Assembly (NCBI RefSeq): GCF_003334335.1
Contig: NZ_QOWQ01000010.1
Length of the DNA stretch: 64,000 bases
Source of the DNA: Escherichia coli
Lineage (GTDB): Bacteria; Pseudomonadota; Gammaproteobacteria; Enterobacterales; Enterobacteriaceae
Strand: one strand, 5' to 3'
This document shows, one piece after another, positions 51,186 to 51,293 of this stretch. Both the position numbers and the translations under genes were made by a program. Position 1 is the first letter of the stretch. Each line of letters starts with the position of its first letter. The notes under the pieces were generated by a model, which had not been told where the DNA came from, made no database searches, and saw nothing but the letters and a program-made list of their open reading frames with translations.

Positions 51186-51293
51186 GTTGTTTCCCCTCGC
51201 TCGCCCCTACCGGGTGAGGGGAAATAAACGCATCTGTACCCTACAATTTTCATACCAAAGCGTGTGGGCATCGCCCACCGCGGGAGACTCACA

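Follow-up and report, generated by a model that had tools for sequence, protein, structure and literature searches.

A stable hairpin between nanA and nanT of Escherichia coli is very probably a collapsed, two-arm derivative of a BoxC (PIT, TM_ECO) repeat, and across the junction at which it lies the drop from nanA to nanT transcript is real and partly Rho-dependent. We tentatively propose, with a probability of about 0.45, that this nan hairpin acts as an accessory, REP-like barrier to 3' exonucleases for nanA transcripts terminated by Rho; that it is a neutral relic is nearly as likely. By descent the nan hairpin is an ordinary, degenerate new member of a known repeat family.

The nanA-nanT spacer and its two hairpins

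The window, by which we mean the whole 64-kb stretch of DNA analysed, is K-12-like, and the 901 bases around the nanA-nanT spacer match MG1655 with 100% identity and occur in 5410 of the 5426 complete E. coli genomes. A preliminary description of this DNA had placed a hairpin between nanA and nanT at 51186-51293. This was confirmed: the interval is exactly the spacer, 108 nt of untranslated sequence, and it contains a strong stem-loop. The features discussed below are the following, in window coordinates.

50292-51185, + strand: nanA, with its stop codon TGA at 51183-51185, within the weak outer helix of the nan hairpin
51186-51229, + strand: whole inner helix of the nan hairpin, 18 pairs including the U-rich/A-rich flank extension, beginning right after the stop codon
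51193-51203, + strand: 5' pyrimidine-rich arm of the nan hairpin, CCCCTCGCTCG (RNA CCCCUCGCUCG)
51204-51210, + strand: C-rich loop of the nan hairpin, CCCCTAC
51211-51221, + strand: 3' purine arm of the nan hairpin, CGGGTGAGGGG (RNA CGGGUGAGGGG)
51222-51259, + strand: linker between the two hairpins, unstructured, C-rich and G-poor (C/G = 2.75 over 51223-51262)
51260-51281, + strand: hairpin 2, GCG-U-GUGGGC-AUC-GCCCAC-CGC, abutting the nanT Shine-Dalgarno sequence
51282-51296, + strand: nanT Shine-Dalgarno sequence GGGAGA (51282-51287) and start codon ATG (51294-51296)
51291, + strand: peak of a published Rho region, MG1655 3372577(-), 3 nt before the nanT ATG, at low resolution
33339-33374, + strand: tldD-proximal three-block BoxC/PIT element CCCTCGCCCCTTTGGGGTGAGGGTTAGGGTGAGGGG, identical to TM_ECO no. 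14

Folding of the spacer RNA predicts two hairpins (51186-51229 and 51260-51281). The predicted MFE of the RNA from 51176 to 51300 is -56.2 kcal/mol (z = -5.15), and none of 200 shuffles folded as well. In the predicted fold the core of the nan hairpin (51193-51221) is an 11-bp G/C stem, the onset of which lies 8 nt past the nanA stop. The spacer had no Rfam match at the gathering threshold, with best permissive scores of 9-16 bits against thresholds of 33-71, and our literature search for a nanA-nanT hairpin, terminator or sRNA found nothing relevant.

The two-arm hairpin is present in every Escherichia lineage sampled (E. coli, E. albertii, E. whittamii and the cryptic clades). When seven Escherichia lineages are compared, the 3' arm does not vary and 97.7% of the cells are paired, with all core-stem substitutions being transitions that keep the pair through G-U on the sense strand. 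The five variable positions examined in the 5' arm and the A/U extension all keep a G-U or A-U pair, again on the sense strand. Covariation within Escherichia was not significant, the observed score being reached by 340 of 500 shuffles; there are essentially no double-sided changes and there is little divergence. At the population level, 0.3% of approximately 5400 E. coli genomes depart from K-12 in the 45-nt hairpin segment (99.7% are identical). This segment is the least polymorphic of the five 45-nt segments compared, the neighbouring 45-mers differing in 10.7% and 10.8% (two spacer segments), 13.8% (nanA coding) and 58% (nanT coding) of genomes. These percentages, which count genomes and not independent mutations, suggest that the hairpin is under constraint. 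Position 51189, in the A/U stem extension, is occupied by G, C or T among the Escherichia lineages and the base is missing in one of them; this polymorphism is masked by BLAST end-trimming in the population counts.

Hairpin 2 is kept in Escherichia, Kluyvera, Pseudocitrobacter, Raoultella, Leclercia, Silvania, Siccibacter, Phytobacter and Buttiauxella, among other genera, and is absent from lineages that have REP/BIME in the spacer, including Salmonella and most Citrobacter and Enterobacter. Double-sided changes occur in four of its nine pairs (19 cells versus 4.6 expected), the observed score is reached in 0 of 500 shuffles, and this covariation looks genuine. Hairpin 2 had no match in Rfam. 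It could act in cis on the translation or stability of nanT, and compared with the nan hairpin it is the more interesting by-product of the analysis. Elsewhere in the window, 31397-31739 carries four tandem naRNA4 copies (Rfam RF02564, REP325 element; 71-77 bits), a known element, and 1-351 comprises a partial 5S rRNA, a tRNA and a complete 5S rRNA, corresponding to the end of an rrn operon.

Descent from a BoxC repeat

BoxC/PIT repeats have reportedly been treated by Bergler in 1992, by Bachellier, and by Hoyne and Maher in 2000 and 2002, and to our knowledge the function of the family has been unknown for 30 years. BoxC is a known 56-bp E. coli repeat family of 32 copies (PMC2267715). TM_ECO is the element formerly named BoxC, or PIT in the naming of Hoyne and Maher; it is made up of one pyrimidine and two purine blocks, is able to form an intrastrand triplex, and occurs in 23 copies in MG1655, every one intergenic (PMC4666352). 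The tldD-proximal copy in the window corresponds letter for letter to TM_ECO no. 14, at the corresponding MG1655 coordinates (Holder 2015 Table 1, PMC4666352). The same study ties BoxC/TM_ECO to local sequence variability, and already describes degenerated TM_ECO as well as pairs collapsing to stem-loops, termed the 'palindrome effect' (Holder 2015, PMC4666352).

Triplex formation was assessed by re-implementing the published finder rules (ITxF-like) on both strands, the rule being consecutive Y-R-R blocks of 6-15 nt with loops of 1-6 nt, at most one mismatch, and C-G-G / T-A-A triads (Holder 2015, Hoyne 2000). The scan recovered the tldD copy (class II, stem 10, 1 mismatch) and found no motif on either strand of 51150-51300. 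An intrastrand triplex in the nan element was thus rejected, pyrimidine and purine motif both failing the scan. The nan hairpin contains one purine block only, the third block being missing, and with that loss it is no longer able to form the triplex that defines TM_ECO. An nhmmer profile of the 23 TM_ECO copies detected the tldD copy with E = 3.8e-11; the nan site (51201-51220) was the second-best match in the window, yet at E = 4.5 it is not significant. Given its single purine block, the failed triplex scan and the non-significant profile score, the nan hairpin falls outside the definition of TM_ECO, and the list of 23 copies does not include it.

There are exactly two occurrences of the purine 10-mer GGGTGAGGGG in the 64-kb window (33365-33374 and 51212-51221). 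Allowing up to one mismatch gives 6 matches versus 2.45 expected, a count reached in 3 of 100 shuffles, which by itself is not strong proof of kinship. Pairwise alignment of the nan hairpin with the intact tldD copy gave z ~2.5, compared with z = 7.6-11.6 for alignment with collapsed BoxC forms. As the direct profile test was not significant, kinship was judged via orthologous loci and collapsed alleles.

The nanA-nanT spacer was extracted from 78 of 80 species representatives. An inverted type-A/type-B pair of full BoxC occupies the site in Pseudocitrobacter faecalis (L006) and Enterobacter sp. kpr-6 (L046), one antisense and four sense BoxC are found in the orthologous spacer of Pseudocitrobacter vendiensis (L009), and Kluyvera (L008, L022) has a decaying BoxC there. 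Profile E-values of BoxC at the orthologous nanA-nanT sites reach 2.8e-10, and these BoxC-bearing spacers (Pseudocitrobacter, Enterobacter sp. kpr-6 and Kluyvera) share a common downstream nanT leader with E. coli. In addition, E. coli CCGGGTGAGGGGAAATAAACGCATC aligns with the 'CCG loop + block 3 + flank' of the P. faecalis sense type-B copy. The 403-nt spacer of P. vendiensis (L009 3458-3742) contains an array of ~3.4 tandem 73-bp units, each with a full sense BoxC, with the antisense BoxC upstream; this is BoxC expansion by tandem duplication within an operon spacer.

Outside the orthologous site, the best match to the nan hairpin in 5426 E. coli genomes is the lldD-trmL spacer, in the form of a two-block allele of TM_ECO 18 (L082 1501-1529) that is 89.7% identical over 29 nt (BLAST E = 0.6 against 28 Gb, ~1e-4 at single-genome scale). 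An exact 12-nt deletion, CCGGGGAGAGGG, located between two direct purine repeats, turns the three-block TM_ECO 18 (L083, the MG1655 lldD-trmL spacer) into the two-block hairpin. As read from identity and coverage bands, the two-block allele occurs in roughly 1500 and the three-block allele in roughly 1200 E. coli genomes. This polymorphism shows a route of BoxC decay at work today.

The nan hairpin resembles BoxC/PIT/TM_ECO in its CCCTCGCCCC-like pyrimidine arm, CCG loop and GGGTGAGGGG purine arm, in its T-rich 5' and A-rich 3' flanks and in its strictly intergenic location; it also resembles the degenerated forms and the 'palindrome effect' of Holder 2015. In contrast to BoxC/TM_ECO, it has two pairing arms only, with no second purine block and no triplex motif. 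The hairpin is intergenic and palindromic, as the family is when broadly defined, and on sequence grounds its positional homology with bona fide BoxC, together with the similarity of arms and flanks, places it within BoxC in this broad sense. The 3' arm corresponds to the type-B 'CCG' loop and block 3 of a sense BoxC. The 5' arm would derive from BoxC either as block 1 with a TCGC duplication or as the complement of block 3 from a lost antisense copy. Accordingly, either the middle purine block was lost from one copy or an inverted BoxC pair collapsed, and these two derivations (single-copy loss of block 2 versus inverted-pair collapse) have about equal alignment scores. The collapsed hairpin was fixed before the Escherichia species diverged. 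Intact TM_ECO are variable, in contrast to the extremely stable nan locus, and an invariant two-arm remnant set against variable three-block loci fits the proposal by Holder that the triplex, not the hairpin, drives instability.

The preliminary description had regarded the nan hairpin as a second copy of the tldD-proximal sequence, and the similarity as that of a shared element rather than chance. A shared element is indeed what we find, the tldD copy being TM_ECO 14 and the nan hairpin a collapsed BoxC derivative. However, the direct match between the two is weak, and their kinship emerges through the intermediates.

Transcript loss at the nanA-nanT junction

The same description had suggested that a partial terminator or processing site at the hairpin could set the nanA:nanT ratio. 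The nan hairpin is not an intrinsic terminator, because no U-tract follows it: the tail reads AAATAAACGC on the + strand and AAACAACTCA on the - strand, with no T-run on either, and a terminator consensus scan gave no site at the hairpin. In the Term-seq data of Adams 2021 (PMC7815308; LB OD 0.4, LB OD 2.0 and M63 glucose), no 3' end is listed within MG1655 3372575-3372682 under conditions where nan expression is low (164 reads per 800 nt). Normally, a 3' end at the foot of the hairpin would be expected from a strong exonuclease barrier. Nor is a 3' end or Rho region catalogued at eight other BoxC loci, and the SMRT-Cappable-seq tables mention neither nanA nor nanT. As far as the summary in Holder 2015 goes, PIT/BoxC elements had neither promoter nor terminator activity in the reporter assays of Hoyne and Maher (PMC4666352).

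The only nanA-linked Term-seq end is a prominent one at window position 50337 (MG1655 3373531, -), 46 nt into the nanA ORF (Adams 2021, PMC7815308). This end, with a Rho score of 1.79 (not significant) and an intrinsic-terminator score of 1.08, could belong to a short RNA or to an attenuation product of the nanA leader.

Evidence for transcript loss comes from Adams et al. 2021 (PMC7815308, Supplementary file 2), where a region of Rho termination is listed at MG1655 3372577(-), with a Rho score of 2.10 and p = 6.2e-5. The underlying bicyclomycin experiment used a single split culture and 800-nt windows (PMC7815308), so the position of the region is approximate. Reads upstream/downstream were 164/58 in the untreated sample and 205/152 with bicyclomycin (PMC7815308), from which we calculate nanT:nanA coverage ratios of 0.35 and 0.74, respectively. 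The read counts with and without bicyclomycin thus indicate that the coverage step at the nanA-nanT junction is partly Rho-dependent: about half of it is relieved when Rho is inhibited by the drug. A partial, Rho-dependent terminator at this junction is plausible, and nothing assigns the Rho effect to the hairpin. The linker between the hairpins (51222-51259) is a candidate Rho loading (rut) segment, on the basis of its composition. A second published Rho region lies at window position 50197 (MG1655 3373671, -; Rho score 2.21, p = 1.2e-7), between the nanR stop, which it closely follows, and the nanA promoter.

The junction therefore has to be compared with two kinds of termination site. The nan hairpin is like an intrinsic terminator in being a G/C-rich stem-loop downstream of a gene; it differs in the missing U-tract and Term-seq 3' end, in an 18-bp stem far longer than is typical, and in that expression of nanT, nanE and nanK requires read-through of it. 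With intra-operon Rho polarity sites the junction shares an untranslated gap of 108 nt, a C-rich, G-poor stretch and a bicyclomycin-sensitive coverage step, although here the rut is putative and the position of termination approximate. Of the earlier suggestion, the partial loss of transcript within the spacer survives, in partly Rho-dependent form, and the hairpin as terminator or processing site finds no support: it has no T-run, scan match or Term-seq end, PIT elements were inert in reporters and the eight BoxC loci are without ends.

Possible roles of the collapsed hairpin

REP/BIME elements inside operons, for example at malE-malF, are 3' exonuclease barriers and Rho-dependent attenuators. 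REP hairpins are likewise documented both as barriers to RNA decay and as attenuators (PMC12306157). The nan hairpin is similar to REP/BIME in being a stable G/C hairpin without a U-tract, intercistronic and right after a stop codon, and in the Rho-dependent loss of downstream transcript at nanA-nanT. Unlike REP/BIME, it lacks the REP consensus (the GCCGGATG.. / ..CATCCGGC palindromic unit; REP-like count 0), and a decay barrier has been shown for REP and is a candidate only for the nan hairpin, at which no 3' end is catalogued.

By analogy, we suggest the following sequence of events. In the nanATEK mRNA, the very stable predicted stem-loop opens the 108-nt untranslated spacer, with its G/C core 8 nt past the nanA stop. 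Ribosomes would leave at the nanA stop; Rho could then load on the C-rich linker 51222-51259, as a putative rut, and would end a fraction of transcripts near the nanT start. 3' exonucleases would trim these Rho-terminated transcripts back toward the hairpin, which as a presumptive REP-like barrier would prolong the life of the nanA-only message and lead to more lyase than transporter.

A comparison across genera bears on whether such a stem-loop is selected for. The first 70 nt past nanA form a stable fold (MFE at or below -15 kcal/mol) in 73 of the 79 enterobacterial species, with a T-rich tail in only one, and these post-nanA hairpins stem from different repeat families across species. REP/BIME occupy the position in Salmonella, Citrobacter, Enterobacter and Lelliottia, where most spacers contain 1-5 REP-like patterns, compared with 0 in Escherichia spacers; other genera, such as Raoultella, have unrelated hairpins past nanA. 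Trabulsiella odontotermitis TbOT1.10 (L043) and T. guamensis (L045) have a bare 33-nt nanA-nanT spacer with no repeat hairpin (an 'empty site'), and in another T. odontotermitis strain (L042) the spacer is 116 nt long and matches the REP-like pattern once. The empty Trabulsiella spacers show that the element is dispensable in some lineages. The overall pattern fits selection for a read-through stem-loop past nanA, and fits equally well that long enterobacterial spacers are merely landing sites for palindromic repeats. It is possible, if rather doubtful, that the spot past nanA is selected for a stable, U-tract-free stem-loop and has been filled independently in each lineage by unrelated palindromic repeats, the Escherichia filler being a domesticated BoxC RNA element that would work with Rho and the nanT-side hairpin to fix the lyase:transporter ratio. 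The fillers may then be BoxC or its remnant in Escherichia, Kluyvera and Pseudocitrobacter, and REP/BIME in Salmonella, Citrobacter and Enterobacter.

The closest competitor to an accessory exonuclease barrier is a decayed BoxC remnant that is transcribed without measurable effect, the drop in transcript being due entirely to Rho action on a long untranslated spacer, to differential mRNA decay, or to the two together. This has a substantial chance of being correct: no 3' end is catalogued at the hairpin or at the other BoxC loci, PIT elements were inert in reporter assays (PMC4666352, in summary form), covariation within Escherichia is not significant, many enterobacterial spacers are filled with intergenic palindromic repeats, and Trabulsiella manages with 33 nt. 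A relic without function is harder to square with the hairpin being the least polymorphic of the five 45-nt segments in ~5400 genomes, with an invariant 3' arm and pairing preserved by all 5'-arm changes across Escherichia species, and with some stable hairpin directly past nanA in nearly every lineage. The hairpin could instead brake translation termination, stalling the ribosome at the nanA stop and lowering NanA via mRNA cleavage and tmRNA tagging. REPs less than 16 nt from a stop codon are reported to down-regulate translation by ribosome stalling (Liang et al. 2015, as cited in PMC12306157), and the nan hairpin lies within that distance (a stable hairpin at most 15 nt past the stop). Such braking is conceivable given that fewer than 15 nt separate the stem from the nanA stop, with the G/C core 8 nt past it, the extended stem at +1 and the outer helix taking in the stop codon itself. 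We nevertheless consider it improbable, as the effect was shown for REP and not for BoxC-type hairpins, and no Term-seq RNA 3' end is listed just upstream of the nanA stop.

Very little weight is left for the hairpin itself being a partial intrinsic terminator or a specific RNase processing site. The high stability of the G/C stem, its position within an operon and the coverage step at the junction would agree with this, but the tail AAATAAACGC offers no U-tract on either strand and no scan match, Term-seq lists no 3' end, bicyclomycin relieves about half of the step, and PIT elements are without terminator activity according to the summary in PMC4666352. That the resemblance to BoxC is fortuitous, with an unrelated G/C-rich hairpin sharing a 10-mer, is slightly less credible again: the profile E of 4.5 and an exact second 10-mer that is only mildly unlikely in 128 kb would allow it, and are outweighed by full BoxC at the orthologous position with a common flanking leader, by the match to a two-block BoxC allele elsewhere (E = 0.6 against 28 Gb, ~1e-4 at single-genome scale) and by an alignment z of ~11. 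The least probable reading places the function in the DNA, as a triplex or cruciform that, like intact BoxC/TM_ECO, promotes local genome instability or binds a protein. The BoxC origin speaks for it, BoxC being linked to local sequence variability (Holder 2015, PMC4666352). It is largely refuted by the triplex scan, in which the three-block rule failed on both strands and the tldD copy passed, and by population identity, the locus being the opposite of unstable with 99.7% of E. coli genomes identical over the hairpin.

The present value of a collapsed BoxC hairpin at this site is mostly one of annotation: a conspicuous hairpin is explained and set apart from the triplex-forming BoxC, and the polarity at the junction is reassigned to Rho. 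Should it turn out to adjust nanA expression relative to nanT, the hairpin would clearly exemplify a decayed BoxC repeat co-opted as an RNA element, and would explain how E. coli obtains more sialic-acid lyase than transporter from a single promoter.
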